A DNA stretch of 64,000 nucleotides from Promethearchaeota archaeon (GCA_019058445.1 JAHPZA010000008.1:10315-74314), one strand, 5' to 3'; shown: positions 2,855-39,130, counted from the first letter of the stretch. Numbers and translations are program-made. Notes: generated from the letters alone by a model not told the origin.

Positions 2855-2950
2855 TTAAATTAATTATTTTAGTATACATTTACCCCTCTACCCTTTATAT
2901 TTTTATATCAATCTTTATTATTTTAATGTTTTTTTTAAAAGTGAGTATAT

Positions 2951-3769: not shown

Positions 3770-3944
3770 TCTCTTGTAGTAGTATAGAACTTTCCGAAAT
3801 AAATACTAGCATGACTTTTAATTTATAAATAAAAAGAAGATATTGGTCCAACTGATAAATATAACATTTAATTAACAAATATTTATAAAATCGTACTCCT
3901 ACTATTGTTTTTGAGACTATTTAAAATAGCAAGAGGTTTTTATT

Positions 3945-4664
3945 TTGGAGCCATTTGAAATATTCAACGGATTTAGTCAAATTATATTTGTTGTAATTGT
4001 TTGGATCGTGGGTATTAAGATTGCATCAAAATATGTTAAATTGGAGGAAAAAAATTTACTCTTCGTTGGGATTGTATGGATTGGATTATCAGAACCTTGG
4101 TTTGCCACTGTAGTAGCCTTCATGCTTGCATTTCTTTTCGGGATACCAACTACAGTTGAAGCATTCCTTTTAATTGGATTCGCATTTACGCCAGTCACCA
4201 TGGTTCTTTGGGGGTACGTAATTACCGATTTTATCTATAAAGAGAAACAAAAAATAATTCTATTAATTGTTGGAATTTACGGACTATTGTTTGAAATATT
4301 ATTTCTATTTTTACTCTTTACCCAACCATCTTTACTTGCCGAAATGATATCTCCCTGGAGAATTGTTTATAAACCTCTCATACAATTATGGATTATTTCG
4401 CTTTTAGTTTTATTTGCAATCACCAGCTCATTGTTTTGTCGAGAATCCTTAAGATCAGACAATCCAAAAATAAAATTAAGAGGAAAATTCTTACTCTTAG
4501 CGTTTATTACTTACATTCTTGGGGGAATCCTCGAAACTTTCTATACTCCCTTTATATATATGATAATTATAAAGCGGGTAGTCACAATTAGTGCTTCAAT
4601 AGAGTTTTATTTTGGATTTATTTTACCTGAACGGGTTGAAAAATTATTCTTAAAAAAAGATTAA
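3945..4664 (+). CDS. Stand-alone 7TM membrane protein (Lokiarchaeia-expanded family)
   Basis: About 7 hydrophobic helices; shares 'SDxPxIKLxGKFLLxAF' and 'FYFGxIxPE' with 48338..49048; TTG start after GAGG. Confidence 0.75.
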   Translation: MEPFEIFNGFSQIIFVVIVWIVGIKIASKYVKLEEKNLLFVGIVWIGLSEPWFATVVAFMLAFLFGIPTTVEAFLLIGFAFTPVTMVLWGYVITDFIYKEKQKIILLIVGIYGLLFEILFLFLLFTQPSLLAEMISPWRIVYKPLIQLWIISLLVLFAITSSLFCRESLRSDNPKIKLRGKFLLLAFITYILGGILETFYTPFIYMIIIKRVVTISASIEFYFGFILPERVEKLFLKKD

Positions 4665-4713
4665 ACCATCTAATTTAAAATAAAAAAATAATATTATCTT
4701 TATTTTTTAGTTA

Positions 4714-6132
4714 TTAATATTTAGGAATCATCTTAAGCGCTACATCCATAGCTTCGATAAACTTGTCATTATCTTCAGGAGTATGTTGCATACATGTGAA
4801 TGCTCGGTTTCCGTACTTCGTAATCACTCCCTCAGACATCATAATAGTTGCTATATTATCAACTAGCTCTTTTCGCTTAATCGCTTTAGGAATGTTGTCC
4901 ATGTCACGAATATCCATACATAACGGCGAGAAAGTCTCATAGTGAATGATTGATTTGTAGTTATAGGCAAAATATGGCCGATTATGGCTTTCAAAGAGAC
5001 TATTTAATTTTTTTACTAGATCATCACCTGCTTTCCCGGCTTTCTCTATTACATTTTGTTCTTCAATAATTTTTATACCCCAATACGTAGCGGCTACTGA
5101 AAGGGGATTTCCTCTTATAGTTCCACTGACAGACGCCTTTTTCCCTGAAACATCAATACCCCCCTCTACAACACCCATTACATCTGCTCTTCCTCCGATG
5201 GCTCCTGCGGATGGGTATCCTTGAGTAATAATCTTGCCAAATATGGTTAAATCTGGTTTAACATTATAATAGTTTTGAGCACCTCCAAGGTCTAACCTAA
5301 AGCCGGTAACCACCTCATCAAAAATATACAAGACATCGTATTGATCACATAATTCTCTCACTGTTTTATGAAATCCTGGTGGAATTGGAAGAGCTCCCGA
5401 TTCTGCTCCTAAAGGTTCTACGATTACAGCCGCTACCCCACTTCTCTTTGCTGACCATTTTTTCAGATTTTCTTCTAATGCTTCAAGATCATTTGGTGGA
5501 AGTGATACTGTATCTTTATAACACCCTCGTGGGATCCCATCTGATTCCATAGCTCCGGAAAAGGGAATGTGTATATCGTAGTTTAGTTGGTCAGACCACC
5601 CATGGTAAGATCCTCCGAATTTAATAATTTTATCCTTACCCGTGAACACTCGAGCTATACGAAGAGCAGCCATATCTGCTTCTGTACCTGATTGAAAATA
5701 CATCATTCGTTCTATTGATGGGACATGTTTCTGAACCATTTTAATCGCTTTATTTTCCCACTCACAATTCCAATATAAATCTGGCGGAAGATCATTAAGC
5801 ACTTTAATAATTTCCTCTCTAAAAAGTGGATAATTGTGCCCTAAAATACATGCTCCAGCACTCATCAAATAATCAATATACTCGTTATTATCCACATCCC
5901 ACATTCTCGTGCCAAGCGCACGTTTCATAGTAACTGCATATGGATCTTTAAGACACATCTGATGCTGAGTGCCTCCTGGGATTAATGAACGTAATTCATC
6001 AGCCAACGGCTTTGATTTCGGTGATTTATCAGCAATTTTTTTACGTATTTTTGCCATATCTTCATCTGAAAAGCCTTTCACGGGATTATCCCTTATAACT
6101 GCTATTCTTTTCTGAATTTCCTCAAATTCCAT
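4714..6132 (-). CDS. Class III PLP aminotransferase (glutamate-1-semialdehyde aminomutase-like)
   Basis: SGTEA, GSYHG, FDEVVTGFR, FGK (PLP lysine). Confidence 0.9.
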   Translation of the reverse strand: MEFEEIQKRIAVIRDNPVKGFSDEDMAKIRKKIADKSPKSKPLADELRSLIPGGTQHQMCLKDPYAVTMKRALGTRMWDVDNNEYIDYLMSAGACILGHNYPLFREEIIKVLNDLPPDLYWNCEWENKAIKMVQKHVPSIERMMYFQSGTEADMAALRIARVFTGKDKIIKFGGSYHGWSDQLNYDIHIPFSGAMESDGIPRGCYKDTVSLPPNDLEALEENLKKWSAKRSGVAAVIVEPLGAESGALPIPPGFHKTVRELCDQYDVLYIFDEVVTGFRLDLGGAQNYYNVKPDLTIFGKIITQGYPSAGAIGGRADVMGVVEGGIDVSGKKASVSGTIRGNPLSVAATYWGIKIIEEQNVIEKAGKAGDDLVKKLNSLFESHNRPYFAYNYKSIIHYETFSPLCMDIRDMDNIPKAIKRKELVDNIATIMMSEGVITKYGNRAFTCMQHTPEDNDKFIEAMDVALKMIPKY

Positions 6133-6314
6133 AATTTTTTCACTACCTAACTATCGTTTTTATTCAATTATGAAATAATAAAATGGTAGGATATTTAAAA
6201 TTTTTAATCTAGATCTAACATTAAAAAATTTAATATAAAATAAAATAATAGGATCAAATATCCTAGAATTAATTAACATAATTTAGAGTAAAATAAATAA
6301 AAGGGAATAATAAA

Positions 6315-8021
6315 ATGCCGAGAGTAATAGATTTGGTCATTGACACGGTAATCGAAGCTGGAATAGATCATGCCTTTGGTTTACCGGGAGGAGTCACCCC
6401 TTTCTTACTACAAGCGTTTTATCAGCGAAAAGACGAGATTCGAACCATTATTGCTCGCCAAGAGGGAATGGCGGCAACAATGGCTGATATGTATGGTAGA
6501 TTAACAGGTAAACCAGGATTACTTATTGGACAAGGTATATGGATAGCAACAAATGGTGCATTTGGAATTGTAGAGTCCTTTTTAGGGGGAGTTCCGATGG
6601 TTATTATTACAGAAATATCTGATTTAGATAATTTAAGTCAACAAGCACCATATCAATGTGGATCAGGAGAATACGGAACAGTGAATATTCAAAATATATT
6701 TCGTTCCATGACTAAATATACAACTTATGCCACAACACCAGCCGAAGTTGTTTATGGTGTCCAATTGGCTATTAAACATGCGATTTCGGGAAGACCTGGT
6801 CCTGCGTGTGTGGTTACCAGATGGAGCTCTTTGGGGGGGAATATTGATGATCCAGCCACCTTATTACCGCCGCTTTATCCTGTAACAGGATACCTGCGTG
6901 TGAGCCCTCCATGTATAAGTGATGTCGATGCTAAAAAAATAGCTAAAATGCTACTTGAAGCCAATAATCCTATTATGATTTGTGGACGTGGTATACATGC
7001 TTCAAAGGCGTATCAAGAGGTTCAAGAATTAGCAGAAATTATTGGAATGCCCGTAACAACAAGTTATATGGGAAAAAGTAGTCTCCCTGATACACATGAT
7101 CTTTCATTGGGAGTTATGGCATCGCGAGGTCAGAAATTAGCTTCAGATTTCATTAAAAGGTCAGACTTAATTTTGGCTGTAGGTACTTGCTTAGCACCAG
7201 ATAACACAAATAGTTGTAGTCCTGATTTGATCAATCCCAATAATCAAAAAATAATCCAAATTGATATCGATCCTCGCAATGCTGGATGGACGTATCCTAT
7301 CACGTTAGGGGTTACTTCTGATGCGAAATTAGCTTTACGAGCCATAATTGAATCAATTAAAATTATTGGTCCTCCCTCTGAAGTACAAAAAACAATAGAC
7401 GAAATTAAGTCAGAAAAACAAAATCCTGAAAATGAATTTTTCATTAGCAAATTTTATTTTTCAGACAAAGAACCAATTGAACCAGAACGTGTTGTAAAAG
7501 AAATTAACGATTTATTTAGAGAAAACGATTTACTTGTGCTAGATGCTGGAAATAATCGAGTTTGGTTCACAAAATTATTTAAATCTAAGAAAGCCGGGCA
7601 AGTGATAGCACCAGGAGGAGCAGCAGGAATGGGATATTCCGCAGGTGCATCAATATCTGCAGCAATGCTCCATAAAGATGGAAAAGTAATACAAATAATA
7701 GGAGATGGTTCCTTATTAATGACTTTAGGAGCGATTGATATGGCTAGAGAATTTAACCTTCCTTTAGTTTATGTTGTACTAAATAACTCAAGTCTGGGAA
7801 ATGTACGTGATTTTCTTTCACGCAAAGGTCGTCCTTTAACACATTACCCCGAAACTAATTTTGCTGATATTGCGAAAGCCATGGGAATTCAAGGAGTCAG
7901 GGTAGAAGGTGTAAGTGAAATCAAACCTGCTTTTGAAAAAGCTTTGAATAGTGAAGGGCCCATCTTATTAGATATAATTGTAAGTAAAGCTTCACATTTA
8001 CGTATTAGAAGTTCCTTATAA
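6315..8021 (+). CDS. Thiamine pyrophosphate-dependent enzyme (acetolactate synthase large subunit-like)
   Basis: FGLPGG, ARQE catalytic Glu, GRPGP, IQIDID, GDG...NN TPP motif. Confidence 0.9.
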   Translation: MPRVIDLVIDTVIEAGIDHAFGLPGGVTPFLLQAFYQRKDEIRTIIARQEGMAATMADMYGRLTGKPGLLIGQGIWIATNGAFGIVESFLGGVPMVIITEISDLDNLSQQAPYQCGSGEYGTVNIQNIFRSMTKYTTYATTPAEVVYGVQLAIKHAISGRPGPACVVTRWSSLGGNIDDPATLLPPLYPVTGYLRVSPPCISDVDAKKIAKMLLEANNPIMICGRGIHASKAYQEVQELAEIIGMPVTTSYMGKSSLPDTHDLSLGVMASRGQKLASDFIKRSDLILAVGTCLAPDNTNSCSPDLINPNNQKIIQIDIDPRNAGWTYPITLGVTSDAKLALRAIIESIKIIGPPSEVQKTIDEIKSEKQNPENEFFISKFYFSDKEPIEPERVVKEINDLFRENDLLVLDAGNNRVWFTKLFKSKKAGQVIAPGGAAGMGYSAGASISAAMLHKDGKVIQIIGDGSLLMTLGAIDMAREFNLPLVYVVLNNSSLGNVRDFLSRKGRPLTHYPETNFADIAKAMGIQGVRVEGVSEIKPAFEKALNSEGPILLDIIVSKASHLRIRSSL

Positions 8022-8041
8022 CCCTACTATTTTTCTGATAT

Positions 8042-8075
8042 AAAGTCCTTTTTTTTTTCCCTTTCTTTTTTTTCT
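8042..8075 (+). terminator. Oligo-T archaeal-type terminator
   Basis: Long T/C tract just downstream of the 8021 stop. Confidence 0.4.
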
Positions 8076-8158
8076 GAATCTATAATTCAAAAACATAGAT
8101 TTTAATAAAAGTTGAAGTAAGTAACTACATATAATTTAATAATAGAAATTAGAAAAAA

Positions 8159-9475
8159 ATGACAGAACAAGAAGAAATTGAATATAAGTCGTCTTATACA
8201 TGGGTTTTTTCTATAAATTATTTTAACCAAGGTTTAGTAACAAGTATTTTGTCCGTGATAATTCCAATATATATCTTAATGATGATTGCAGAGGGGGGAA
8301 CTTCGATTACACCTTCTGATGTTGCCTATATCGCCTCTATTATTACAATCCCATGGGCAGTGAAGCTCTTTTTCGGAATTGTTGCAGATAAATATGGACT
8401 CAAAACATTAGGAAGGCGAAGACCTTGGGTTTTAGGTGCTTTATTGATATCATCGGTAGGCTGGATAATGCTCCCCGTTATGATAACTCCAGTAAATGTG
8501 CTTCTAATGGTTACATTACTAGGATTTGTTATCAATTGCGGGACCGCATTCAGTGATACCGTTTTGGATGGTTTTATTATTGATATTTGTCCAAAAGAGA
8601 GACTAGGTCGCGTTCAAGGATTTGTCTGGGGGTTGCGATCTATAGGGACAATCGCAGGAGGACCTGTACTTGCTCTCTTCATAGTTTTAGGACATCTCTC
8701 GGTAAATGCGATTTTTATCGGTGAGGCCATTTTAACAGTGTTCTTTGCTATTTCGATTCTTGTAGTAAATGAAAAAAAGGATTATCCTAAAGTAATGCTT
8801 AAAGAGCATTTCAAAGGCATGTTTAATACTGGTAGAGATTGGAAAGCCTATATGTTCGCTTTAGCAAATAATGTTATGGGTGATGTTATTGTTCTCTTTT
8901 TAGCCATGTTTATTTTAATAGAGATGGGCATTATAGAAATGAAAGGCAGAAATATAACCCTTGGGGAAAAGACATTGGAAGTGTATCTTTTTCAGGCAAA
9001 TGTAACTTTGCTTATCGCAATAGGGATAGTTATCGGGGCAGTTCTCGGAGGAATCATGGCCGACAAAAAAACGAGAAAATCTGCAATTCATTTGGGGGTT
9101 GTGATAACCACAGCTTCTATTTTACTATTGCTAATCCCTGCAACTTGGGAACTTTTGCTTTTTTTTACAATAATAATCGGTGTTGCACTCGGTTTCCGTC
9201 ATTCCTCCTATTCAGCAGTAGTAGGTCAACTAGCTAAAAAGCATCCCGAAATGGATAGCACATACTTCTCAATCGCAAACTCATTTAGTAATTTCGGTGC
9301 AACCTTAGGACTCATTATCACGGGGCTAATTTTCCAAGTTTTCGGCACTTATGCGTTCTTATTTATTTTTCTCGCAATAATTAGTAATGTGTCATTAATC
9401 CCCTTTTGGGCAATTAACGCTGAAGAATATGAACATAAAACAAAAGGAAGCACAATTGTGTCAGATATCAAATAA
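8159..9475 (+). CDS. MFS transporter, AmpG/acetyl-CoA transporter-like
   Basis: 12 TM; 'PWAVKLFFGIVADKY...GRRRPW' and 'SDTVLDG' motifs typical of the AmpG/PAT family. Confidence 0.8.
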   Translation: MTEQEEIEYKSSYTWVFSINYFNQGLVTSILSVIIPIYILMMIAEGGTSITPSDVAYIASIITIPWAVKLFFGIVADKYGLKTLGRRRPWVLGALLISSVGWIMLPVMITPVNVLLMVTLLGFVINCGTAFSDTVLDGFIIDICPKERLGRVQGFVWGLRSIGTIAGGPVLALFIVLGHLSVNAIFIGEAILTVFFAISILVVNEKKDYPKVMLKEHFKGMFNTGRDWKAYMFALANNVMGDVIVLFLAMFILIEMGIIEMKGRNITLGEKTLEVYLFQANVTLLIAIGIVIGAVLGGIMADKKTRKSAIHLGVVITTASILLLLIPATWELLLFFTIIIGVALGFRHSSYSAVVGQLAKKHPEMDSTYFSIANSFSNFGATLGLIITGLIFQVFGTYAFLFIFLAIISNVSLIPFWAINAEEYEHKTKGSTIVSDIK

Positions 9476-9520
9476 TCTTAATTTTATTTTTTCTTTTTTT
9501 TCTTTTTTCTTTAAACGTTA

Positions 9521-10249
9521 CTATGTTTTCCAAAAACGCTTAAAACGAGCTTCTTGAATTTCTTTTATAGGCAGGATTATATCTAATACTGTATAAATTT
9601 TATCTGTTTGAATAGATTTCTTTGGTTTTTTTCGCTCGCTTCTAAAAGTCTCTAATTCCTTTAGCATTCCTTGATATTTCTCAAAATAAAACTCAAACTC
9701 TTCCTCATCCAATAATTCAACATAATAATTAATGTGTTTTTTGAAATAAAAATCATCCATATTTTTCCTCGTAGGTGATAATTCGAATAGTTTTCTATCA
9801 AGCTCATCGTAATAAGGAGGTAAATCTTCAAATATTTTTTTTATTATCTCTATAGTCTTTGCATCGGATCTGAGATCGTGAGAAAGAATCTCTACAATAT
9901 CTTCTGGAGGTAGTTTTAAAAAATCAAATCCTAACCTTGTATATGCAAGTAAATTAGGAATTACGGAGTAAATTTTTTTATTAAATTGTCCACGTGATTT
10001 TACTTCACGTACTTTCAGCAGTCCTGACTCTTCTAGAACACCAAGATGCTTAGTGACTGTTGGCCAACTTTTTCCTAATTTTTCACATAAATCTTTAGCG
10101 CTTTGCTCTTTATAAATCCAGAGAAGGAGAAGAATTCTAATTCTAGTAATATTATTTATCGCATCTATAACTTCAACTTGGTTTTTTATCCGATCTTTTA
10201 AGTGATCAATTTTTTCCTGACTAAGTTCCTCGTTTTCTATTTTCACCAT
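9521..10249 (-). CDS. ArsR-family winged-helix transcriptional regulator
   Basis: 'TRIRILLLL...SAKDLCEKLGKSWPTVTKHLGVLEESGLL' wHTH; divergent from an MFS gene. Confidence 0.85.
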   Translation of the reverse strand: MVKIENEELSQEKIDHLKDRIKNQVEVIDAINNITRIRILLLLWIYKEQSAKDLCEKLGKSWPTVTKHLGVLEESGLLKVREVKSRGQFNKKIYSVIPNLLAYTRLGFDFLKLPPEDIVEILSHDLRSDAKTIEIIKKIFEDLPPYYDELDRKLFELSPTRKNMDDFYFKKHINYYVELLDEEEFEFYFEKYQGMLKELETFRSERKKPKKSIQTDKIYTVLDIILPIKEIQEARFKRFWKT

Positions 10250-10306
10250 TTTAGTTCAGAATGAAATTTTAATTAGTTAAAATTAATAAAATTTAATAAA
10301 TAAATA

Positions 10307-10357
10307 ATAAAAATTTTATATAAAAAATTTTTATAAAAAAAAATATATAAAAAATTT
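10307..10357. promoter_or_regulatory. Candidate operator repeats between the divergent ArsR and MFS genes
   Basis: Near-palindromic units ATAAAAATTTTAT, ATAAAAAATTTTTAT and ATAAAAAATTT in tandem; pure AT, so weak. Confidence 0.3.
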
Positions 10358-10396
10358 AGAATATAGAATCTTTAAAAAAATTTTGTGAGATTAAAG

Positions 10397-11791
10397 ATGA
10401 GTGAATCAACTAAAGAGGTAAAATACTCAAAAAAGGTACACTGGTCATATGGGATAGGTGGTTTTTTAGACAACTTTATGCTTGCAGCCTTTACAGTGAG
10501 AATTATTGATTTTTATGAAAATGAGCTTTTATTGGCAATTTTTTGGGTTGGACTAGCTTTCGGAATATACGGCTTCTGGAATATGATCAATGATCCCCTA
10601 TTAGGTTTTTTATCTGATAGAAAAACTCGTTTTACAGAAAAATATGGAAGGAGATATCCATTCTACTTGATAGGAGCTCTGACATATGCATGGATTTTTT
10701 TGTTTGTTTTCACGGTACCTTTCACTGATCAAATTGGTATGTTCATCTGGCTTCTAGTTACTATATGCATTTTTGAAGGTCTATTTACACTTTGGCAGAT
10801 CAATTATTTATCGCTGTTCCCTGACAAGTTTCGTTCACCCATGGAAAGAACAAAAGTTGGTGTTACTAATACTGTATGGGGATTGATTGGTATTGTTTTA
10901 GGAGTTGCATTGCCACCAATGTTAATTACTTATGGAGATATCCAAAGTTATATAATTATGGCAATGGCAGTTACGATAATTTGTTTTATTTTAGCAATCT
11001 TTTCAATACCAGGTATGAAGGAGGACCAAGAATTAATTGATCGACAACTAAAAATTTTGGAAGAACAAAAAGATAAAGTATCATTTTGGCAAACTCTAAA
11101 ACATGCTATGAAAAATCGGAACTTTGTGGCATATGTATTGACATATATGGGGCATTTAGTAATGACGACCATGATGTTAGCTTCATTGCCATATTGGAAT
11201 AAATATATAATTGGTTCAGATGATCCTGAATTAGAAACAATCTTAGCAGCGGGATTTTTAGTAGCAGTACTCATATCAGTTCCAATATGGAGTAAAATTG
11301 GACAAAAATATGGGAATAAAAACGCATTTATGATGGGAACTCTTTTAACGACATTTCTCTTTATTCCAATGTTTTTCATCAGTGATTTATTATTGAGCAC
11401 GATCTTTATTGCGTTAATCGGTGTTGGTATAGGGGCTATTTGGGTGTTGATGTATCCTTGTTTCTCAGATGTAATTGACGAGATTGTGATAGAAACTGAA
11501 AAGCGACAAGAGGGGGTTTATACAGGGATTAGAACTTTTTTTGGAAGATTTCCTATTGTGATCCAAGCTATCGCATTTATGGTCGTACATCCACTTACAG
11601 GGTATAGGGCAGGTGCACCTCCAGGACAAAGCTCTCAGACATTATTAGCACAATTTGGAATTCGATTTCTAATGGCAGGACTTCCGATGATCTTCTATTT
11701 TATAGGATTTCTATTAATGTGGAAGGTCTACACGTTAGATAAGGCTTGTGTAGCGGAGAATAAGGAATTACTACAAAGAAAACTTCTTTAA
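10397..11791 (+). CDS. MFS transporter, GPH (glycoside-pentoside-hexuronide:cation symporter) family
   Basis: 'WNMINDPLLGFLSDR...GRRYP', 'DVIDE...KRQEGVY'; ATG at 10397 preferred over GTG at 10385. Confidence 0.9.
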   Translation: MSESTKEVKYSKKVHWSYGIGGFLDNFMLAAFTVRIIDFYENELLLAIFWVGLAFGIYGFWNMINDPLLGFLSDRKTRFTEKYGRRYPFYLIGALTYAWIFLFVFTVPFTDQIGMFIWLLVTICIFEGLFTLWQINYLSLFPDKFRSPMERTKVGVTNTVWGLIGIVLGVALPPMLITYGDIQSYIIMAMAVTIICFILAIFSIPGMKEDQELIDRQLKILEEQKDKVSFWQTLKHAMKNRNFVAYVLTYMGHLVMTTMMLASLPYWNKYIIGSDDPELETILAAGFLVAVLISVPIWSKIGQKYGNKNAFMMGTLLTTFLFIPMFFISDLLLSTIFIALIGVGIGAIWVLMYPCFSDVIDEIVIETEKRQEGVYTGIRTFFGRFPIVIQAIAFMVVHPLTGYRAGAPPGQSSQTLLAQFGIRFLMAGLPMIFYFIGFLLMWKVYTLDKACVAENKELLQRKLL

Positions 11792-25080: not shown

Positions 25081-26359
25081 TTATTTTATATCGCTTAAAT
25101 CTACACCTTTTGTTTCTGCACCATAAAGAAAATTTAAAGGTATTAGCAAAAATAATAAGAGTGCGTAGATTATAAAAGTAGTTCCTAACCCATAAAATAA
25201 GATTAAAGCACTGGCGATTAAGAGTCCAAACGTGATACCAAGAGCATTTAATAAACTTCTAAATCCTAAAGCTGTGCCTCTTTTCTCCGTGGGTACCAAC
25301 TCCAATGTAGTCACTCGAAAAATCCCTAATAATCCCCAATAACATACATGAGTTAATGCATATCCTATTTGAACAAGGATATATGCATAGGGAGTGAGAG
25401 CTCCCCATACCCACATCATAACTGAAATCGGCATTAATGCGGCCCATATATATAATAAAGGTTTTCTTCCGATTCTATCTGCTAAAACACCATTTATGGT
25501 ATAAGCAACTAAAACTGCCAAGATCGTCCATAAAAAAATCAGAGTAATTTGAGATTGACTAAGACTACCCACATCCGAAATATATTTTTCGAATAGACCT
25601 AAATAGATGGTGCTAGCCCCGTAAATTGCACTCATTATTAAAATAGCGGTGTATGGTTCGATTTTCGGTCTTGAAAATAGATTTTACCTCATTTAGAAAC
25701 GATTCTTCTTTTATTGGTTTCTTAATCCCCTCTTTCTTCATCATTTCATATTTCTCTGTCTCCTTAATCGTTAAAAGTATAATTATGCAGAGAGGAATAC
25801 CTAAGAGAATCGGAAAAACCATCATCATTCGCCAATTTGATGTAGTATCTGTAATATATATACTGCGTAAAATTACCATGATAACAGCACCCACTAATCC
25901 TCCAACTAAAAGAATACTAGTAAAGAACATTCGTTTTTCTTTTTTTGATTCTTCATTTATATAGAGAAACCATATATCGGAAAGTTGAAAAAAATTCAAC
26001 AGAAAAACAAAGATTACATATTGGACGTAATTCTGCGAAATAATGATCAATAAGCTAGCAATTGCCATACCAGCCACGGTAATCGCTAACATAATTTTTC
26101 TCCCGATTCTATCCGCCGCATATTGATTAAAAAAGATTAAATAAGCACCTACAGACGCAATACTCCCCCCCAAAGCCATAATGGCATTTTGCTCATTTAC
26201 AGAATAATCACTTAAAAATTCTTCAGCAATTTTAGAAGGAAAAGCCCCCACAACTACAGTTGCATAACTATCAAGAATTTCAACTAGAATTAATATTATT
26301 ATCAAATAAATAAAATACGCTTTGGTTCTAGATTTTAAATTAGAATTTGTTGGATCCAT
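25081..26359 (-). pseudogene. Frameshifted MFS transporter (ORFs 25613..26359 and 25081..25635 are two halves)
   Basis: Each half has an ADRIGRK motif; minus strand reads ...GAA AAT CGA A CCA TAC ACC GCT ATT TTA ATA ATG..., frameshift near 25657. Confidence 0.8.
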
Positions 26360-30683: not shown

Positions 30684-32501
30684 TTATTTTGAATAAGATC
30701 CAAATTGTGGGAATTTCTTTATTTGTTCTGATGTGAAAATTGGTCCATCTTTACAAACACATACATCATTATTTTCTCCAATACAGCATGATCCACATAA
30801 TCCAACTCCACATTTCATCTTTCTCTCGAGTGAAGCTTGCACTTCTATGTTTTTTGTTTCAGCAATATCTAAAATGCGTTTCATCATAACTTCTGGGCCA
30901 CATGTCAGAATGAGATCGATATTCTCGTTATTAAGGATATCTTCCACGGCATCTGTTACGAAGCATTTTTTACCTCTAGAGCCATCATCAGTTGTACACA
31001 TGGTATTAGGGATCCAATCAATAAGACGATCGGCAAAGATTAGTGAAGCTTCGTCCTTAGCTCCGATTGCGACAAATACATTTTTCTTATTTTTCTTTAA
31101 AGGTTCGATCAAAGTTGTCACAGCTGCAATCCCCACACCACCACCGGTTACCAGAATATTTGTAGCGTCTTCATAATTCCATGCATTTCCAAATGGACCT
31201 CTTATCCCTATAATATCTCCTGCGTTCTTATTAAACAATTCAGCAGTTCCCTCACCGATTTTTTGCACGGTAATTTCAAGTAAATTCCCCTCAACATTAG
31301 AGATCGACATTGGTAAAAAGTCAACATCGGGTAACCATAGAACTACAAAATTTCCAGGTCTATAGGCTTTTGCAATTCGAGGATTTCTAATATAAAAACT
31401 TTTTAATTCAGGGGAATGATCTACGATTGAATCAATAACTGATATATCAGTTTTACTTCTGGTGATGTCTAATACTAATTCTTCATTATCTTTATCAAGT
31501 GATTTTTCTTCAAGAATTCCTTTTTCAATTGCTAAATCGAAAATTTGTTTTCCTCTCTGTGTTCTGATAATTGCGGTTTTCCAACCATTGTCACTGCCGA
31601 CCTCTCCTATGGCGATATCTGCAAAAGAAGCGGTGTAATCAGAACACGAAAAACACGCATTTCTAATAGATTTATCATAAAGCTGATTAAGTGGAATTTC
31701 TTTCACACTTGAATTGATAACTACTTTTAATTTAAAATTATTTCTGTCATGTTCGATGTTCTTAATTTCATTTGGGTTTATATAATACTCCTTAAAGATC
31801 TCATCTAATACTTTATTATGGAAAGTACCGAAGCAAAAGGTGCCAATCGCTAAGGAAACTAAGTCGAACGCTTCGAAATCGAAGCGAGGATGGTTCTGTA
31901 ATTTTCTAAGCCCTTGAATTTGACAAGGTGTACCTACCACGGCAATATCTACGAATCCCTTATTAATCGCATCTCCTATAAGTGATAAGGTAGGACTCTG
32001 ACTTGGTTTATATCCGATGCTCTTAAATAGTTCCTGTTGGTTTTCGGCAATCATAGGATATGGTTTGAAGTCCTCGTCCTTTCCCGTAACAATTGATGCA
32101 TCTATTATCCCCTGTTCCAGTGCGGTCCATAATAATGCGGTAATTGGTCCCGCATCCATCGCCAGTTTTTCCCGTGCTGAATCCGAAATCTTAACTGATA
32201 CAATTTTGATAAAGTGACCAAGAATTCTATCATGTTCTTTACCAAATACCCATTTATCCAATAGCGCTGAGGAAATTTTTTCGATTTCTGTTTTTGGACA
32301 AATATTATAACACAATCCAAATCCATCACGACAAGTATTAACATCTTTGCATGAGCCATCTTCAATCGGTACTTCTTTTTCAGAATCAAATTTAATATTT
32401 GCACAAAAAGCTCCACAAGCCCCGCAATATACACACTTTCCGGTTTTTATGATTTCAGAATCTAATTCTTGCCAACCTTTTTGAATTTTATCTATGTAAA
32501 T
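30684..32501 (-). CDS. Fusion of a ferredoxin/FrhB (F420-binding beta subunit) domain and a PyrK-type FAD/NAD(P)/[2Fe-2S] electron-transfer domain
   Basis: Frame is open beyond the track start (32315) through CVYCGACGAFC and C..GLCYNICP; FrhB motifs VGTPCQ, GTFC, CFSCSD, ADIAIG; PyrK motifs GPFGN, GGGVG, CGP, ERKMKCGVGLCGSC...CKDGP; likely ATT start at 32501. Confidence 0.85.
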   Translation of the reverse strand: MYIDKIQKGWQELDSEIIKTGKCVYCGACGAFCANIKFDSEKEVPIEDGSCKDVNTCRDGFGLCYNICPKTEIEKISSALLDKWVFGKEHDRILGHFIKIVSVKISDSAREKLAMDAGPITALLWTALEQGIIDASIVTGKDEDFKPYPMIAENQQELFKSIGYKPSQSPTLSLIGDAINKGFVDIAVVGTPCQIQGLRKLQNHPRFDFEAFDLVSLAIGTFCFGTFHNKVLDEIFKEYYINPNEIKNIEHDRNNFKLKVVINSSVKEIPLNQLYDKSIRNACFSCSDYTASFADIAIGEVGSDNGWKTAIIRTQRGKQIFDLAIEKGILEEKSLDKDNEELVLDITRSKTDISVIDSIVDHSPELKSFYIRNPRIAKAYRPGNFVVLWLPDVDFLPMSISNVEGNLLEITVQKIGEGTAELFNKNAGDIIGIRGPFGNAWNYEDATNILVTGGGVGIAAVTTLIEPLKKNKKNVFVAIGAKDEASLIFADRLIDWIPNTMCTTDDGSRGKKCFVTDAVEDILNNENIDLILTCGPEVMMKRILDIAETKNIEVQASLERKMKCGVGLCGSCCIGENNDVCVCKDGPIFTSEQIKKFPQFGSYSK

Positions 32502-32502
32502 T

Positions 32503-33102
32503 TTAATTCCCCCCCTCTTCTTTTAATTTTTTAAGAAAATCTTGTGCTTCTAGCTTTCCAAGTTCAAATGCTTCAATATTTTTATCTAAAGTTGCGCTCG
32601 GAACGAATTCTTGAATAGTTTTAAGTGCCGATTCCTCTGAAAAAATTCCCGAAAGCGCTGTAAAAGCACCGAAAAGAATAGTATTACCATATACGGTATT
32701 TCCAAATTTCTCTAAAGCTAATTTTTGAACCGGAATTGATAATGCTTTAGAGATTCTTTTAGCTGCTCTGAATTTTTGGATGGTTGAGGGATCCCAGATT
32801 AAGAATCCTGAATCTCCTTTTTTCAAACTACTCGGCTTTACATCCTTCGCGGACTCTTCTGAAAGAATTATCAAAAAGTCATATGGTTCTAAGGCTTTTG
32901 GATAATCAATTAATTTCATCTCTTTATCTAAATCAACTACTACTTCAGCCCAACATCGTCCTCCTCTCGCCGCAGCAGAATAAGCTTCGGTTTGAGTAGC
33001 GGCTAAATTTTCATAGAGCGCACTAGCCATTACAATCATCTTACTTAGGGTTATAACTCCTTGACCCCCAAAACCCGCAACTCTAATTTCATATCGAGCC
33101 AT
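32503..33102 (-). CDS. korC: 2-oxoacid:ferredoxin oxidoreductase gamma subunit
   Basis: AGFGGQG, YSAAARGG, NTILFGA. Confidence 0.9.
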   Translation of the reverse strand: MARYEIRVAGFGGQGVITLSKMIVMASALYENLAATQTEAYSAAARGGRCWAEVVVDLDKEMKLIDYPKALEPYDFLIILSEESAKDVKPSSLKKGDSGFLIWDPSTIQKFRAAKRISKALSIPVQKLALEKFGNTVYGNTILFGAFTALSGIFSEESALKTIQEFVPSATLDKNIEAFELGKLEAQDFLKKLKEEGGN

Positions 33103-34019
33103 TATTTATCCCCCATGGCTATTTTTTGAATTCTAGCATATTCTTCAGAATATTCTGGTTTATCTGACTCATATCTGAATTCCCCGATAATATATTTATT
33201 AAATAACTCCTCCTCAGTCATGAATTTGGCTTGATTTATTCTTACGCTGTTTCTTTTTATCCAATCTACCATTTTTCCACCAGTATCCATCTTTTTTCCC
33301 TCTAATCCTAAATATTCTGCACCTAAGCTATCTACATTTTTTCTTCCAAAGTAAGTAACACAGGGAGTAACGATTTCAATAACTGAAGTTCCTTTATGCT
33401 TTAAGGCTTTTTTAAAATATTTCATAAAGGTACGGGGATGTGCGACCGTTGTTCTTGCCACGTGAGTAGCTCCTGCAGCTAAAGCAAGTTTAATACCATC
33501 ACTTCGATTTTCAAACATAGTATAAGGTGTAGTGCTGCTTTTAGCTCCAAAAAGAGTTGTAGGTGCTCCTTGACCTCCCGTCATTCCATAAATACTATTA
33601 TTGAAGATAAATATGACACAATCTAGATTTCTTCGGCATAGATGGATGAAATGATTACCCCCAATGCCTAAACAATCTCCATCACCTGAAAAGACTATGG
33701 GTTTCATATTGGGATTAGCCATTTTCATTCCGGTAGCTACAGCTGGAGCTCTCCCATGAAGTGCTAAAACTTTTTGAGCGTCAGCATGAACTAATAGCAA
33801 AATCTGAGAATAACAGCCGATTCCAATTACTAACGGATGTAAATTCGGATCTAACTTTAAATCCTCAAAAACACGAGTGTAAATTTGTCCAATTATCCCA
33901 TATCCACAACCAGCACAAAATCTCGAAGAATAAGTGTTTAATATGCGACCGGCATATGAATCCAAAACATAAGGATGTTCTGGCTTCTCACTCGGATACA
34001 TTGGAAGTTCTCCCGACAT
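33102..34019 (-). CDS. korB: 2-oxoacid:ferredoxin oxidoreductase beta subunit (TPP-binding)
   Basis: FCAGCG, GIGC, LHGR, GDGD, NNSIYGMTGGQ, PCVT. Confidence 0.92.
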   Translation of the reverse strand: MSGELPMYPSEKPEHPYVLDSYAGRILNTYSSRFCAGCGYGIIGQIYTRVFEDLKLDPNLHPLVIGIGCYSQILLLVHADAQKVLALHGRAPAVATGMKMANPNMKPIVFSGDGDCLGIGGNHFIHLCRRNLDCVIFIFNNSIYGMTGGQGAPTTLFGAKSSTTPYTMFENRSDGIKLALAAGATHVARTTVAHPRTFMKYFKKALKHKGTSVIEIVTPCVTYFGRKNVDSLGAEYLGLEGKKMDTGGKMVDWIKRNSVRINQAKFMTEEELFNKYIIGEFRYESDKPEYSEEYARIQKIAMGDK

Positions 34020-35197
34020 TATTGTGCCACCTCCCTTATTGCTTTTAAAATATCATCTGGATGATGAAACACCGCTACTTGAGGAACTTTAATGATAGGA
34101 GTTCCAAGTGGAGTAACTCGTTCAACTTGCTCCGCAATAATTCCAGTGTAATTTAATTCGGGAACAATAACGGCTTTAGCATTTTTTACTACTTCTTTTA
34201 CTTGTTCATCTGGAAAGGGCCAGACAGTAATTAATCTAAAAGCTCCCACTTTAATTCCCTCTTCACGTGCTATTTCAATTGCTCTATAGCTTACTCTTAC
34301 AGGTAGACCATAAGCAATTATAACGATTTCAGCATCATCTAACTTATAATTTTCGGTAAGACAAATCTTATCCTTGTTTGTTTTAATTTTATCAACCATA
34401 GTCTGTACAAATCGAAAAGGATCAGGTGATAATATTCCTTCGGGACCGTGGGGAGTATGTAAAAACATACCTGGTACATATTCTGTTCCCATGATAGGTG
34501 GTTTAGGAATTACATATTCATTTTTGACTTTGTCTAAGTAGGAAAATACACGAGGACTAATCTCTTCAGATGGAGGGACCTCTCGTTTTATTACCTTATT
34601 TAATATCTCTTCTTTTGGCGGGATATCAACGACTTCATGTAAATGTCCTAAATACGCATCAGATAGGATAAATACAGGGCAACGATATGTCTCAGCATAA
34701 TTAAATGCAGTGATTGTTAAATCAAAGAGTTCCTGGCAATTCATAGGAGCTAATGCTATTACTTCAAACTCACCATTTCCAGAAAAACGTACAAGTCCTA
34801 GATCGTTATGATGAGGATCTGTTACGCTTCCAGTACCAGGACCACAGCGTTGTACATCGCAAAAAACAAAAGGAATTTCAAGATTTGCTGCCATTGAGAT
34901 AGTTTCTACCATTAATGACAGTCCTGGTCCAGAAGTTGCAGTCATAGCTTTTGCACCGACCAATGATGCGCCCATTACCGAATTAATAGATGCTAATTCA
35001 TCTTCCATTTGCATGCAGACACCCCCGACTTGAGGCAATCTTTTTGCAAGATGTTCAATTACCTCAGTACTTGGAGTTATGGGATACCCTCCAAAAAACC
35101 TTAAACCAGCGGATATCGCTCCCTCGGCCATAGCTTCATTGCCCATCATTAAATGTCTTCCTGGTTTTAGAAATCTTTTACCATTTTGATTATTCAT
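34019..35197 (-). CDS. korA: 2-oxoacid:ferredoxin oxidoreductase alpha subunit
   Basis: GNEA, GYPITPSTE, QMEDE, TATSGPG, QRCGPGTG; true start is ATG 35197 after GAGGTGA, not the track's 35344. Confidence 0.92.
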   Translation of the reverse strand: MNNQNGKRFLKPGRHLMMGNEAMAEGAISAGLRFFGGYPITPSTEVIEHLAKRLPQVGGVCMQMEDELASINSVMGASLVGAKAMTATSGPGLSLMVETISMAANLEIPFVFCDVQRCGPGTGSVTDPHHNDLGLVRFSGNGEFEVIALAPMNCQELFDLTITAFNYAETYRCPVFILSDAYLGHLHEVVDIPPKEEILNKVIKREVPPSEEISPRVFSYLDKVKNEYVIPKPPIMGTEYVPGMFLHTPHGPEGILSPDPFRFVQTMVDKIKTNKDKICLTENYKLDDAEIVIIAYGLPVRVSYRAIEIAREEGIKVGAFRLITVWPFPDEQVKEVVKNAKAVIVPELNYTGIIAEQVERVTPLGTPIIKVPQVAVFHHPDDILKAIREVAQ

Positions 35198-35210
35198 ATG
35201 ATTCACCTCT

Positions 35211-35495
35211 TTATGTTTTGGCTTTTCCAGCCGAATTTTCTGTACCCTCTTCAATGATATAGATTGCCCAGTCCGGACAACCAAATTCACACCGCCTACA
35301 CATCGTACAATACTTTTCTTTGCCTTCCTTGACTCTTGGAACATAAGCTATTCGCATATTTAATTCATCTCCGATTTCTAATATACCCGTAGGACACACT
35401 GCAACACATATTTCACAGCCACCACATCGATCTTTATTAAAAAATAAGGAAAAATTTTTTTCTTTGTTTTCAATTAATTTTGGAATTTTAATCAA
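35211..35495 (-). CDS. korD: 2-oxoacid:ferredoxin oxidoreductase delta subunit (2x[4Fe-4S] ferredoxin)
   Basis: CGGCEICVAVCP and CTMCRRCEFGCP; start is TTG 35495 or ATT 35486. Confidence 0.9.
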   Translation of the reverse strand: MIKIPKLIENKEKNFSLFFNKDRCGGCEICVAVCPTGILEIGDELNMRIAYVPRVKEGKEKYCTMCRRCEFGCPDWAIYIIEEGTENSAGKAKT

Positions 35496-35804: not shown

Positions 35805-36215
35805 ATGAAACGAAAAATTCGTGTCCTCATAGCTAAACCAGGTCTAGACGGCCATGCTCGAGGGGCAAAGGTAGTCTCAATGGCATTAAGAGACGCTGGG
35901 ATGGAAGTAATTTATACAGGACTTCAACAAACACCTGAACAAATAGTCAATGCTGCTTTACAGGAGGATGTTGATTGTATTGGAATATCCATTCTAAGTG
36001 GTGCTCATATGACATTAATACCTCGCATCTTAGAATTGATTAAAAAACAAGGATTATCAGATAAATTAATAATCGCAGGAGGCACTATTGTTTTAGAAAA
36101 AGATATAGAAGCTCTCAAGGAATTGGGAGTTAATGAAATATTCGGTCCAGGAACTCCAACAAAAGAAATTATTGATCATATTAATCACTATTTTGGAATA
36201 ATCAATAAACTTTAA
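35805..36215 (+). CDS. Acyl-CoA mutase cobalamin-binding small subunit
   Basis: [10 protein letters not shown] (DxHxxG), SILSGAH, GG, FGPGT. Confidence 0.95.
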
Positions 36216-36247
36216 AATTCAATAAACAACCAAAGAGGCAATAAGAA

Positions 36248-37909
36248 ATGTATGATAAAGAGAAATTAAAAGAAATAAAAAATAATGAGGTGTTTTGGAA
36301 AAATATAATTGTTCAAAAATGGATTGAAAGATTTCCTGAAATAAAAAATGAATTCAAAACATCTTCAGGTATAATACTTAAAAATGTCTATACTCCCATA
36401 GATATCGTGAATTTGGATTATTCAAATGACCTTTCATTTCCCGCTATTTATCCTTTTACACGTGGAATTTACCCAAATATGTATAGAGGTCGAATATGGA
36501 CTATACGTCAAGTAACAGGGTTTGGTAAGGCCGAAGAAACCAGTGAAAGACTTTCTTTTTTAGATAAAGCAGGACAGACAGGTCTAAATATTGTTTTTGA
36601 CATGCCTACTCACCATGGGTTGGATTCGGATGATCCTATCGCAGAAGGAGAGGTAGGTAGAGAGGGCGTTGCGATTGATACAATCAAAGATATGGAAGAT
36701 CTATTTGATGGAATTCCTCTTGATCAGGTAAGCACTTCACTCATAACGATCGGTGCAGCCCCGATATTACTGGCTATGTATATTGCAATAGCTGAAAAAA
36801 GAGGGATGAAATCTGAAAATTTAGCAGGTACTATTCAGAATGATTCTATTACTGCTTTTGCAGTAACTGGTGCTGAAGGTTCTGGTATCAGGCTTGATCC
36901 GCTTATAAGACTTGCCGTAGATACTGCTGACTATTGTATCAGATATATGCCAAAGTGGTATCCATTAAGTATTGTAGGATATCATATACGTGAAGCTGGA
37001 GCTAATGCAGTTCAAGAATTAGCATTTACCTTAGCTAGTGGTATTGCATATGTTAAGGAACTTTTAAAAAAAGGATTGGATATTGATGAGATAGGACCAA
37101 AGATAACATTCTTCTTTGGTGCGCATAATAATTTTTTCGAAGAAATTGCTAAATTCAGAGCTGCCCGAAGGATGTGGGCTCGAATTATGAAGAAATGGTT
37201 CCATGCTAAAGATATAAGATCAATGGTTTTAAAATATCACGTTCAAACCTGTGGATGTACCTTAATCGCTCCACAACCAGAAACAAATATCATAAGAACC
37301 ACGATTCAAGCTCTAGCAGCTATTTTAGGTGGAACAAATTCTTTGCATACCAATTCTATGGATGAAGCATTTGCTTTACCCTCAGAAAAAGCATCGAGAA
37401 TTGCTGTAAGGACTCAGCAAATTATAGCTCATGAATCAGGAGTAGCTGAAGTATGCGACCCTCTTGGTGGTTCTTATTTCATAGAGGCACTCACTAATGA
37501 AGTCGAAAAAGAGGCTTATAAGTATATCGAAAGAATTGAAGATATGGGTGGGATGATTGAAGCTGTGAAAAAAGAATATATTCAAAATGAGGTTGCAAAG
37601 TCAGCTTATAAATATCAAAAGGATATAGAAAGCGAAAAAAGTATTGTGGTGGGTTTAAATAAATACCAGATTGATGAGAAATTAGAACTTAACCTCTTTA
37701 AAATAGGACGCAATTATGAAATACGGCAAATTGAAAATTTACAAAAGATTAGAAAAACAAGAGATAATCTTAAAGTTAAAGAAGTTTTATCTGAAATTAG
37801 TGATGGATTGCATAAAGGTGAAAATCTTATGCCGCTGCTAATTAAAGCAGTCAAAACCTATGCAACAATAGGAGAACTTATGGGAATATTAAAGAAGGAT
37901 TTAATTTAA
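36248..37909 (+). CDS. Acyl-CoA mutase large subunit (methylmalonyl-CoA mutase family, atypical specificity residues)
   Basis: PFTRG, WTIRQ, GLDSD, GTIQND, YHIREAG, EIAKFRAARR, SLHTNSMDEA, DPLGGSY. Confidence 0.93.
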   Translation: MYDKEKLKEIKNNEVFWKNIIVQKWIERFPEIKNEFKTSSGIILKNVYTPIDIVNLDYSNDLSFPAIYPFTRGIYPNMYRGRIWTIRQVTGFGKAEETSERLSFLDKAGQTGLNIVFDMPTHHGLDSDDPIAEGEVGREGVAIDTIKDMEDLFDGIPLDQVSTSLITIGAAPILLAMYIAIAEKRGMKSENLAGTIQNDSITAFAVTGAEGSGIRLDPLIRLAVDTADYCIRYMPKWYPLSIVGYHIREAGANAVQELAFTLASGIAYVKELLKKGLDIDEIGPKITFFFGAHNNFFEEIAKFRAARRMWARIMKKWFHAKDIRSMVLKYHVQTCGCTLIAPQPETNIIRTTIQALAAILGGTNSLHTNSMDEAFALPSEKASRIAVRTQQIIAHESGVAEVCDPLGGSYFIEALTNEVEKEAYKYIERIEDMGGMIEAVKKEYIQNEVAKSAYKYQKDIESEKSIVVGLNKYQIDEKLELNLFKIGRNYEIRQIENLQKIRKTRDNLKVKEVLSEISDGLHKGENLMPLLIKAVKTYATIGELMGILKKDLI

Positions 37910-37951
37910 GTTTCATAAGAAATTATAAAAATTTTAAAAATAAATCATCTT

Positions 37952-39130
37952 TTACAATTTCTTATATTCTTCTAGTATTTTTTTAGCAACATCATCAGTG
38001 TTGCTGTATTTTCCCTCTTTTCTAAAATTTAGAGGTACGGCATCTGCTGGTAAAAACATCCAATTCTTTTCAACATCAAGTCCATGAGCTAATGTATTTT
38101 CTAAGGCATGCATGAGTTTTTTAGATTCTGTTTCAAATCCTAAGTAATCAAGCATCAAGGTAGCTGAAACTATCGCTGCTGCAGGGTTTGCGATTTTTTG
38201 ACCTGCTATATCAGGAGCAGAACCATGAGTAGGTTCGAAATATGGGATTTTTGGACCATAAACACCAGAGCCAGCAACACCCAAACCTCCCACAATTTGA
38301 GCCGCTTCATCGCTCAAAATATCCCCCATCATATTGGGAATTACTATAGTATCGTGATAGTCAGGAAATCTTATTAACCGGGCCGCAAAATCATCCACAA
38401 TATAAGTCTCTACTTTTAAATCGGGAAATTCGGTCTCGGCTATTTTTTTTATTCTTTTAATGAACATACCGTCTTGCTGGCGAAAAATATTAGGTTTGCA
38501 GACGATTTCAAGCAATCCTTTTCCAACACCCTCATTTTTGCGTTTCATACACAGCTCGCAAGCTGCTCGACCTACTCTGTCAGTCGCGTGGGGGGATACC
38601 ACCCTTAGGCCATAAATTGCCTTTTCAGTCCATCTTTCAATCTCTGGTTTATAGATTAATCCTTTTTTAATTAATTTTGTAATTTTTCCTTCTTTCCCTA
38701 CTGCTGCATATGCGCCTTGCGTACATTCTCTTACAAACACATAATCAATGTTTTCTACCAATTCTGGTTTGAGATTGGTATCCATTCCTTTAAAATATTT
38801 GATAGGCCTTATATTAGCATAATTTCCAAGCCCCCAACGCAAATATGCAATGACTTGTGTTGCTGTTTCGTGCGTTGCTCCAAATAAAACTGCATCGCTA
38901 TTATTTACTGCTTCTTTTGATTCAGGAGGAAAAGCGTTACCATGTGTTTGTATAGCACTCTCTCCACAAGGCATACTTTTGATTTCTAAACCATTAATTT
39001 TCATTCCCTCCAAAATAAAAACAGTCGCGTTGACAACCGTTGGTCCGATACCGTCTCCCCCCAGAGCTGTGACAACTTTTTTTGATTTATCAATATTTGG
39101 GCATTTAAGCACGCTTCTGTATCGTTCCAT
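37952..39130 (-). CDS. Isocitrate/isopropylmalate/homoisocitrate dehydrogenase family (beta-decarboxylating dehydrogenase)
   Basis: GDGIGP, YANIRP, KPN, NMMGDILSD, FEPTHGSAPDIAG, ANP. Confidence 0.92.
   Translation of the reverse strand: MERYRSVLKCPNIDKSKKVVTALGGDGIGPTVVNATVFILEGMKINGLEIKSMPCGESAIQTHGNAFPPESKEAVNNSDAVLFGATHETATQVIAYLRWGLGNYANIRPIKYFKGMDTNLKPELVENIDYVFVRECTQGAYAAVGKEGKITKLIKKGLIYKPEIERWTEKAIYGLRVVSPHATDRVGRAACELCMKRKNEGVGKGLLEIVCKPNIFRQQDGMFIKRIKKIAETEFPDLKVETYIVDDFAARLIRFPDYHDTIVIPNMMGDILSDEAAQIVGGLGVAGSGVYGPKIPYFEPTHGSAPDIAGQKIANPAAAIVSATLMLDYLGFETESKKLMHALENTLAHGLDVEKNWMFLPADAVPLNFRKEGKYSNTDDVAKKILEEYKKL

Follow-up and report, generated by a model that had tools for sequence, protein, structure and literature searches.

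An FrhB-PyrK fusion protein as the putative electron-output subunit of a Kor-type 2-oxoacid oxidoreductase in one order of Asgard archaea

Among enzymes of the ferredoxin type that release CO2, the closest described relatives of the system presented here carry a bound reductase of coenzyme F420. In Ca. Ethanoperedens thermophilum, the zeta subunit of the F420-reducing CODH/ACDS (8RIU_B) and FwdI of formylmethanofuran dehydrogenase (8RJA_E) are such bound F420 reductases, in which an N-terminal two-cluster ferredoxin domain docks onto the enzyme, ferredoxin is replaced, and F420 becomes the electron acceptor of the CO2-releasing steps (Lemaire, Wegener and Wagner, 2024; PMC11493965). Furthermore, FrhB paralogues of ANME-1 archaea (FrhB6) cluster with pyruvate:ferredoxin oxidoreductase (PFOR), and a route from oxidative decarboxylation to F420 reduction has been proposed for them (Chadwick et al., 2022; PMC9012536). 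Here we focus on an operon in a 64,000-nucleotide stretch of DNA from a Promethearchaeota archaeon (GCA_019058445.1 JAHPZA010000008.1:10315-74314; this whole stretch is called the window), in which korD-korA-korB-korC, encoding a four-subunit Kor-type 2-oxoacid:ferredoxin oxidoreductase, are followed on the minus strand by a gene for a 605-residue protein with ferredoxin-like, FrhB-like and PyrK-like parts (30684..32501). As judged from sequence, a structural model and comparison with known systems, this fusion protein is probably a dedicated fifth subunit, which acts as the electron-output adaptor of the enzyme. Literature searches found no description of an FrhB-PyrK fusion or of an F420- or NAD-linked Asgard oxidoreductase.

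Like CODH zeta and FwdI, the fusion protein opens with a ferredoxin domain for two clusters, continues with an FrhB-type [4Fe-4S]/flavin domain, and has its gene inside the operon of a CO2-releasing enzyme of the ferredoxin type. In contrast to these subunits, its host is a 2-oxoacid oxidoreductase dependent on thiamine pyrophosphate (TPP), their short C-terminal dimerisation tail gives way to a whole PyrK-type FAD/NAD/[2Fe-2S] domain, and its flavin-site motifs are remodelled, F420 reduction by the fusion being putative. With FrhB6 of ANME-1 it has in common that an FrhB-family protein is encoded together with a 2-oxoacid oxidoreductase; the FrhB6 proteins, however, are lone FrhB proteins of Halobacteriota, located beside PFOR and known from genomics only, whereas the fusion includes PyrK, belongs to a Kor-type enzyme and is found in Asgard archaea, and the two are likened here by description, not by sequence.

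The C-terminal half links to other known systems. As in NfnAB, a small-subunit module of the PyrK type (FAD, [2Fe-2S]) is joined to a second flavin module with a [4Fe-4S] chain toward ferredoxin, but in the fusion the role of the large subunit is held by an FrhB-type domain, both modules reside in a single chain, and the protein is tied to an oxidoreductase. No gene of the GltD/NfnB type was detected in the operon with Pfam and NCBIfam models. As in PyrK of dihydroorotate dehydrogenase B (1EP3, 5KSW), the C-terminal half passes the PyrK equivalog model NF000796 and its nearest lone relatives adjoin pyrD; unlike PyrK, it has no PyrD partner, lies behind an FrhB module and is part of a kor operon. 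NADH-dependent phenylglyoxylate dehydrogenase, PadEFGHI, consists of a four-subunit oxidoreductase core of the archaeal type and an extra flavoprotein, and reduces NAD+ directly. The operon in the window likewise combines a four-subunit core with one added flavoprotein subunit, although the additional Pad subunit belongs to a different flavoprotein family and is not known to have an FrhB module; the Pad models (NCBIfam NF0457xx) score weakly on the window operon.

Architecture and start of the fusion protein

Pfam and NCBIfam models identify in one operon an alpha (POR_N and PFOR_II), a beta (TPP_enzyme_C), a gamma (POR) and a delta subunit (two Fer4 motifs), which is the composition of a KorDABC-type enzyme. 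One base past the korC stop begins a frame of 605 codons, which extends from 32501 to 30684 and closes the operon, since the next gene lies on the opposite strand. A first-pass annotation, made by a model from the DNA alone, had assigned to this frame a ferredoxin-like Cys region, an FrhB domain and a complete PyrK-type FAD/NAD/[2Fe-2S] domain, and all three parts are recovered as eight Cys residues, Pfam domains and a match to NF000796 above its cut-off.

The N-terminal ferredoxin-like domain (residues 1-85; 32247..32501, minus strand) contains the motifs CxxCxxCxxxC and Cx5Cx6Cx3CP and is predicted to hold two [4Fe-4S] clusters. Each of its eight Cys residues (23, 26, 29, 33, 51, 57, 64 and 68) is at least 98% conserved among 121 fusion sequences, and alignment matches this region to residues 1-83 of 8riu_B, the docking ferredoxin domain of that protein. 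The FrhB-type domain (residues 93-340; 31482..32225, minus strand; PF04422 and PF04432) exceeds the gathering cut-offs of both Pfam domains of the superfamily, with FrhB_N at 107-177 (49.4 bits, cut-off 22) and FrhB_C at 188-339 (129.6 bits, cut-off 23.3), and stays below the equivalog cut-offs of FrhB proper and FpoF (TIGR03289, 170 vs 331.5 bits; NF040616, 103 vs 475 bits). Its predicted [4Fe-4S] ligands C193, C223, C283 and C286, at least 98% conserved in the same set, align with the FrhB ligands Cys104, 134, 192 and 195 (PMC3591093). The PyrK-type domain (residues 352-605; 30687..31448, minus strand) includes NAD_binding_1 (455-544) and DHODB_Fe-S_bind (561-596), the flavin motif PMSIS, the nucleotide motif GGGxGxA and the [2Fe-2S] ligands C564, C569, C572 and C583. 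The whole protein scores 250 bits with NF000796, and residues 351-605 alone score 252.8 bits, against a cut-off of 224. Conservation of at least 98% in the 121 homologues applies to all Fe-S ligands and to both PyrK motifs.

Among solved structures, the best sequence match of residues 12-365 is 8riu_B (186 bits), followed by 8rja_E (154 bits), and in Foldseek the FrhB part reaches a template-modelling (TM) score of 0.82 to both; the PyrK part reaches 0.82-0.85 to the NfnI small subunit 5jca_S and PyrK 5ksw_B, and the C-terminal half matches 4ylf_A with 126 bits. The AlphaFold2 model of the fusion, built from 113 sequences, has a mean predicted local distance difference test score (pLDDT) of 93.1 and a predicted TM score (pTM) of 0.91, and both halves are therefore predicted to form a single rigid body.

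The fusion gene opens with ATT (32499..32501, minus strand), which aligns with the ATG or GTG starts of 27 relatives, and homologues begin with MYIDKIQKGW precisely at this codon. The frame contains no ATG, GTG or TTG before a TTG at 32315, itself inside the Cys region, and automatic calling of open reading frames (ORFs) therefore yields a shortened protein of 543 residues, as seen in both ATT-bearing genomes (P0002, P0030). Another genome of the same genus (G170) has ATG, and the same ATT is found in a sister species (locus L019 of genome G174, 87% identity). A sequencing error is thus unlikely; shared by two species-level genomes, the ATT appears to be inherited. The gene is translationally coupled to korC: the last korC codons contain the Shine-Dalgarno-like GAGGGGGGG (32517-32509), which serves the fusion gene, and the gap between korC stop and fusion start, one base in the window, measures about 0-9 bases in relatives. 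A GGAGG-like motif lies inside the end of korC, and the run of seven G before the ATT is part of a Shine-Dalgarno-like motif present in all relatives.

Linkage, distribution and origin

The association of the fusion with the kor genes is constant. All 33 related loci with any upstream DNA have korC immediately before the fusion and in the same orientation, and the full korD-A-B-C set precedes the fusion in 25 of the 26 loci with at least 3 kb of upstream sequence, including a clade of about 42-43% identity (L051). The flanks of the five genes differ by lineage, with aconitase-type gene pairs, IDH-like genes, a corrinoid/MttB methyltransferase set or LutAB-like genes as neighbours. Constant linkage inside changing surroundings implies that the five genes move as one unit. 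The flanking genes were also considered as a clue to the substrate and rejected in this role, as they vary between lineages. Taken together, the eight conserved Cys residues, the alignment to 8riu_B, the TM score of 0.82 and the invariant kor linkage are the features of an adaptor subunit.

A word-based search retrieved more than 120 protein clusters of 599-626 residues with 69-87% identity to the fusion, and all named ones originate from Asgard metagenome-assembled genomes. At NCBI and JGI these homologues are labelled 'dihydroorotate dehydrogenase electron transfer subunit', so that hundreds of database entries are misnamed. HMMER, run exhaustively against 1.84 billion cluster representatives, placed full-length fusions in only two 50% clusters (68% and 43% identity), the remaining matches being lone PyrK-like or lone FrhB-like proteins. 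Among 400 genomes of the phylum, 84 contain the fusion, and all of these belong to the window's own order: 79 of 134 genomes in the window's family are positive, as are four in two sister families, and the fusion is absent from 30 other families. All fusions form one group in the tree of the FrhB half (Shimodaira-Hasegawa-like approximate likelihood ratio test, SH-aLRT, 100; long stem of 0.7) and likewise in that of the PyrK half (SH-aLRT 87), where they stand beside lone PyrKs; this fits a single fusion event. A partial protein that NCBI labels Bathyarchaeota (P0124, 441 residues, ending at the contig end) is 36% identical over fusion residues 6-442 and may be either a misbinned sequence or a fusion from beyond the Asgard order.

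The database name, together with the score of the C-terminal half above the PyrK equivalog cut-off, would suit an electron-transfer partner of PyrD in pyrimidine synthesis. Nevertheless, the genome possesses a pyrD and a separate, adjoining pyrK on contig C1; this PyrK scores 270 bits on NF000796 and is 40% identical to the C-terminal half of the fusion. pyrD occurs in no fusion locus, and neither pyrD nor a hydrogenase gene lies within about 10 kb of the operon (the first-pass annotation had seen none nearby), while the lone relatives of the C-terminal half in other archaea sit beside pyrD in 28 of 43 loci. The PyrK domain was therefore recruited from the PyrK lineage and has acquired a new partner. 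An artefact is equally hard to sustain. Loss of one G from the run of seven would place korC in frame with the fusion, but a KorC-fusion product arising by slippage is rejected because the G run is interrupted in the sister species with the same ATT (GAGGGGGAGAAT) and the 27 relatives have ordinary starts; misassembly is rejected because the same architecture recurs in 84 genomes and over 120 protein clusters. Both the artefact and the pyrimidine reading are thus extremely improbable and, as far as sequence evidence reaches, already refuted.

Predicted electron path and competing explanations

The first-pass annotation had suggested a polypeptide that passes the electrons of ferredoxin made by the oxidoreductase to F420 and/or NAD(P), or else an F420H2:NAD(P) transhydrogenase, possibly a bifurcating one. 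Electron transfer from the oxidoreductase to F420 and/or NAD(P) remains the best reading, because the fusion is conserved, always kor-linked and not a PyrD partner, F420 can be made by the organism, and the N-terminal half resembles an adaptor; the specific part concerning F420 reactivity is unsupported, with three motifs remodelled, and so are the transhydrogenase and bifurcating activities. We infer docking, cofactor order, acceptors and substrate as follows. A 2-oxoacid would be oxidatively decarboxylated at TPP in KorAB, and the electrons would travel through the [4Fe-4S] clusters of KorB and KorD to the two [4Fe-4S] clusters of the ferredoxin-like domain, docked at the site of free ferredoxin. 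From there they would cross the FrhB-like domain by its [4Fe-4S] cluster and then its flavin, enter the PyrK-like domain through the [2Fe-2S] cluster and FAD, and end on NAD(P)+; the FrhB flavin may also, or instead, reduce F420. The net reaction would convert 2-oxoacid, coenzyme A (CoA) and NAD(P)+ and/or F420 to acyl-CoA, CO2 and NAD(P)H and/or F420H2 without free ferredoxin, and would for this reason be strongly exergonic and one-directional.

Such an output would matter beyond this operon. Models of Asgard physiology, and of the syntrophy from which eukaryotes may have arisen, take reduced ferredoxin to be the product of 2-oxoacid oxidation and H2 or formate to be its outlet; an output to NAD(P) and/or F420 would alter the predicted redox balance, the thermodynamic pull of amino- and organic-acid breakdown and the dependence on a partner. 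Furthermore, bolt-on F420-reductase subunits, recently found on ferredoxin-type CO2-releasing enzymes, would be extended to TPP-dependent oxidoreductases, and FrhB plus PyrK would be a further domain combination whose cofactors are laid out as in a bifurcating enzyme.

The two predicted acceptors differ in how well they can be supported. NAD(P) binding by the PyrK half is likely, and F420 reactivity of the FrhB half is an evenly balanced matter. In favour of the latter, the genome encodes cofH (463 bits) with a cofG-like neighbour, cofD (306 bits) and two cofE, and it also carries several luciferase-like genes that belong to the Mer family. At the position of the F420-tail site of FrhB the fusion has a conserved patch of basic residues (K165, K/R253, K257 and K259), and G118, T121 and K165 are retained despite the changed signatures of the flavin/F420 pocket. 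The roles of these sites are known from FrhB: one signature caps the helix at the FAD pyrophosphate, the second forms a loop next to the bent FAD, the third a loop beneath the F420 ring, and the patch lies where the F420 tail binds (PMC3591093).

Several observations weigh against the assignment as an electron-output subunit, or at least against its F420 branch. Across the whole fusion clade the helix cap has changed from QDGGxVT to xAGP[IL]T, the loop beside the bent FAD from G[TS]KYT to GYKPSQSP and the loop under the F420 ring from VGS[VI]GS to VG[N/E][IV]GS, and F420 use is uncertain for this reason. In the window the first of these reads AGPIT (residues 117-121; 32139..32153, minus strand) where the FrhB family has GG[IV]VT to cap the FAD-pyrophosphate helix at its N-terminal end, a deviation already pointed out in the first-pass annotation; among the 121 sequences, A is present in 107, G in all 121, P in 116 and T in 119. 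The canonical forms of all three motifs are almost invariant in 24 lone FrhB relatives and in the genome's two other FrhB paralogues, and the fusion clade of about 43% identity diverges at them still more. F420 reactivity, or even the flavin itself, may therefore be changed in the FrhB half. The fusion is also not associated with cofH within the family: cofH is found in 116 of 135 genomes, comprising 66 of the 80 with the fusion and 50 of the 55 without it. Since cofH is near-universal, the genome comparison as such neither helps nor hurts the F420 claim, and five nearly complete genomes that have the fusion and no detectable cofH all possess cofD and two cofE. In addition, the fusion is patchy even among the complete genomes of the family, and is therefore accessory; the operon retains its own KorD and could thus still serve free ferredoxin; and the sole exception to the full gene set, locus L028 (1-3811) of one metagenome-assembled genome, lacks korD, korA and korB and has only a damaged korC before the fusion, preceded by an unrelated ORF that exceeds 1,036 residues. 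The first 14 codons of korC in L028 stand in another frame, and the arrangement could be a rearrangement, decay or a chimeric contig.

Part of this evidence can be accommodated if the fusion is a free-standing enzyme that is merely co-transcribed, namely a ferredoxin:NAD(P)+/F420 oxidoreductase which re-oxidises Kor ferredoxin while unbound, or an F420H2:NAD(P)+ transhydrogenase. The retention of KorD, the usual ferredoxin-facing subunit, and the occurrence of the fusion without korDAB in L028 would agree with this. No canonical F420H2:NADP+ oxidoreductase (Fno, npdG) was found in the genome itself (92.6% complete) or, at the curated cut-off, in any of the 135 family genomes, so that the F420/NADP link would otherwise be missing. 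Against a free enzyme stand the korC linkage and translational coupling, which are invariant over 33 loci while the flanks change, and the nearest solved relatives, which are bound adaptor subunits; moreover, in 48 of 54 genomes of one genus the fusion is accompanied by a weak Fno-like gene. We therefore regard a free-standing enzyme as unlikely. Still less credible is an input role, in which NAD(P)H or F420H2 would feed the enzyme for the reductive carboxylation of acyl-CoA, that is, 2-oxoacid synthesis. Kor-type enzymes are reversible, and the closest solved alpha and beta chains include 2-oxoglutarate synthase 8ys5, but hydride carriers, at about -320 to -340 mV, are too weak as reductants for a couple near -500 mV unless electrons are bifurcated. 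It has further been argued that FrhB-linked CODH and PFOR run only oxidatively (PMC11493965, PMC9012536), and relatives have genes of catabolic type beside the operon (aconitase-like, IDH-like, LutAB-like), which makes electron input very improbable.

The remaining explanation shares its anatomy with the output adaptor and differs in the role of the FrhB flavin, which would be a bifurcating or confurcating centre, as in Nfn, between the low-potential [4Fe-4S] arm from the oxidoreductase and the high-potential [2Fe-2S]/FAD arm of PyrK toward NAD. Two F420 would then be reduced jointly by low-potential electrons of the 2-oxoacid and by NAD(P)H, or the reaction would run backwards. The cofactor set mirrors that of NfnAB, the C-terminal half is close to NfnA and NfnI small subunits (4ylf_A with 126 bits, 5jca_S with a TM score of 0.82), the second flavin domain lies beside Fe-S clusters in a model predicted to be rigid, and the long stem of the FrhB clade and its remodelled flavin-site motifs fit a changed role of the flavin. 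A pair of PyrK-like and FrhB genes also closes an HdrA-MvhD cluster in the same genome. Plain downhill transfer, however, explains the same anatomy, FrhB flavins known so far do not bifurcate, and F420 and NAD(P) have similar standard potentials, so that any energetic gain would hang on cellular ratios. This three-way enzyme and its reaction are consequently distinctly unlikely, and there is a similarly slim chance that Kor-FrhB-PyrK is a flavin-based confurcating or bifurcating machine built on a 2-oxoacid oxidoreductase, an F420-dependent analogue of Nfn that passes 2-oxoacid electrons and NAD(P)H to F420 or operates in reverse. If it were, Loki-type Asgard archaea would have an outlet for the NADH of amino-acid fermentation that needs neither free ferredoxin nor a hydrogenase.

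Operon genes, substrate and neighbouring loci

The first gene of the operon, korD (35211..35495, minus strand), has a TTG start and encodes a delta subunit of 94 residues with two [4Fe-4S] motifs, as supported by Fer4 family matches and the OorD-type model NF007205 (61.7 bits). It is kept upstream of korA in 25 of the 26 related loci with enough DNA. The alpha subunit is encoded by korA (34019..35197, minus strand), with matches to POR_N (196 bits), PFOR_II (72 bits) and NF006412 (395.8 bits, slightly below the cut-off of 411). Its true start is most likely Met50 (ATG at 35197) and not the listed ORF start at 35344: the Pfam and NCBIfam alignments begin beyond residue 60 (NF006412 from residue 63), and several relatives match only from residue 50. 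The longest korA ORF, from 35344, overlaps korD by 134 bases, and the ATG of Met50 is located 11 bases past the korD stop. korB (33102..34019, minus strand) encodes the TPP-binding beta subunit (TPP_enzyme_C, 110 bits; PorB_KorB TIGR02177, 196 bits), and korC (32503..33102, minus strand) the gamma subunit (POR family, 89 bits).

With regard to the substrate, the closest solved relatives of KorA are 1yd7_A and the 2-oxoglutarate synthase chain 8ys5_A, KorB matches the beta chain of 2-oxoglutarate oxidoreductase 8ys5_C with 163 bits, and the nearest solved chains of KorAB include the 2-oxoglutarate enzymes 8ys5 and 6n2n. Together with the IDH-like gene and the acyl-CoA mutase that adjoin the operon in the window, flanks which are not kept among relatives, this makes 2-oxoglutarate a plausible substrate. 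The genome contains seven paralogues of the oxidoreductase alpha subunit, and the fusion accompanies one of the seven. At 35805-39130 in the window, a B12-binding protein and the large subunit of an acyl-CoA mutase are encoded on the plus strand, between korD and an IDH/IPMDH-like gene on the minus strand. In two relatives (L034 and L035) korD has the IDH-like gene as its immediate upstream neighbour in the same orientation, and the mutase pair in the window may therefore be an insertion.

The weak Fno-like gene mentioned above (e.g., G227:C12:157054-157641) is full-length and scores 60-113 bits against a cut-off of 150; in about a dozen genomes it lies on the same contig as the kor-fusion operon, at a distance of 13-22 kb. 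A complementary distribution of the fusion and Fno is not seen, given that canonical Fno is absent from the family and this gene coexists with the fusion in its genus.

Elsewhere in the window, at 25081-26359 on the minus strand, two overlapping ORFs of 184 and 248 residues both match the major facilitator superfamily of transporters, and look like a single transporter gene that was split by a frameshift or a sequencing error. The HdrA-MvhD cluster of the same genome (G000:C3:497970-507972; positions 970-10975 of locus L010) consists of eight genes, which encode an HdrA-like protein (562 residues), MvhD (268 residues), a double HdrA (1005 residues), a further MvhD (175 residues), two Fe-S proteins (one of the Fer4_22/HydB-AsrA type), a PyrK-like protein of the HydG/AsrB type (279 residues) and an FrhB with canonical motifs (418 residues). 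In this genome, therefore, the genes of a putative bifurcating Hdr complex also end in a PyrK-like and FrhB pair, here as separate genes and in the order opposite to that of the fusion.

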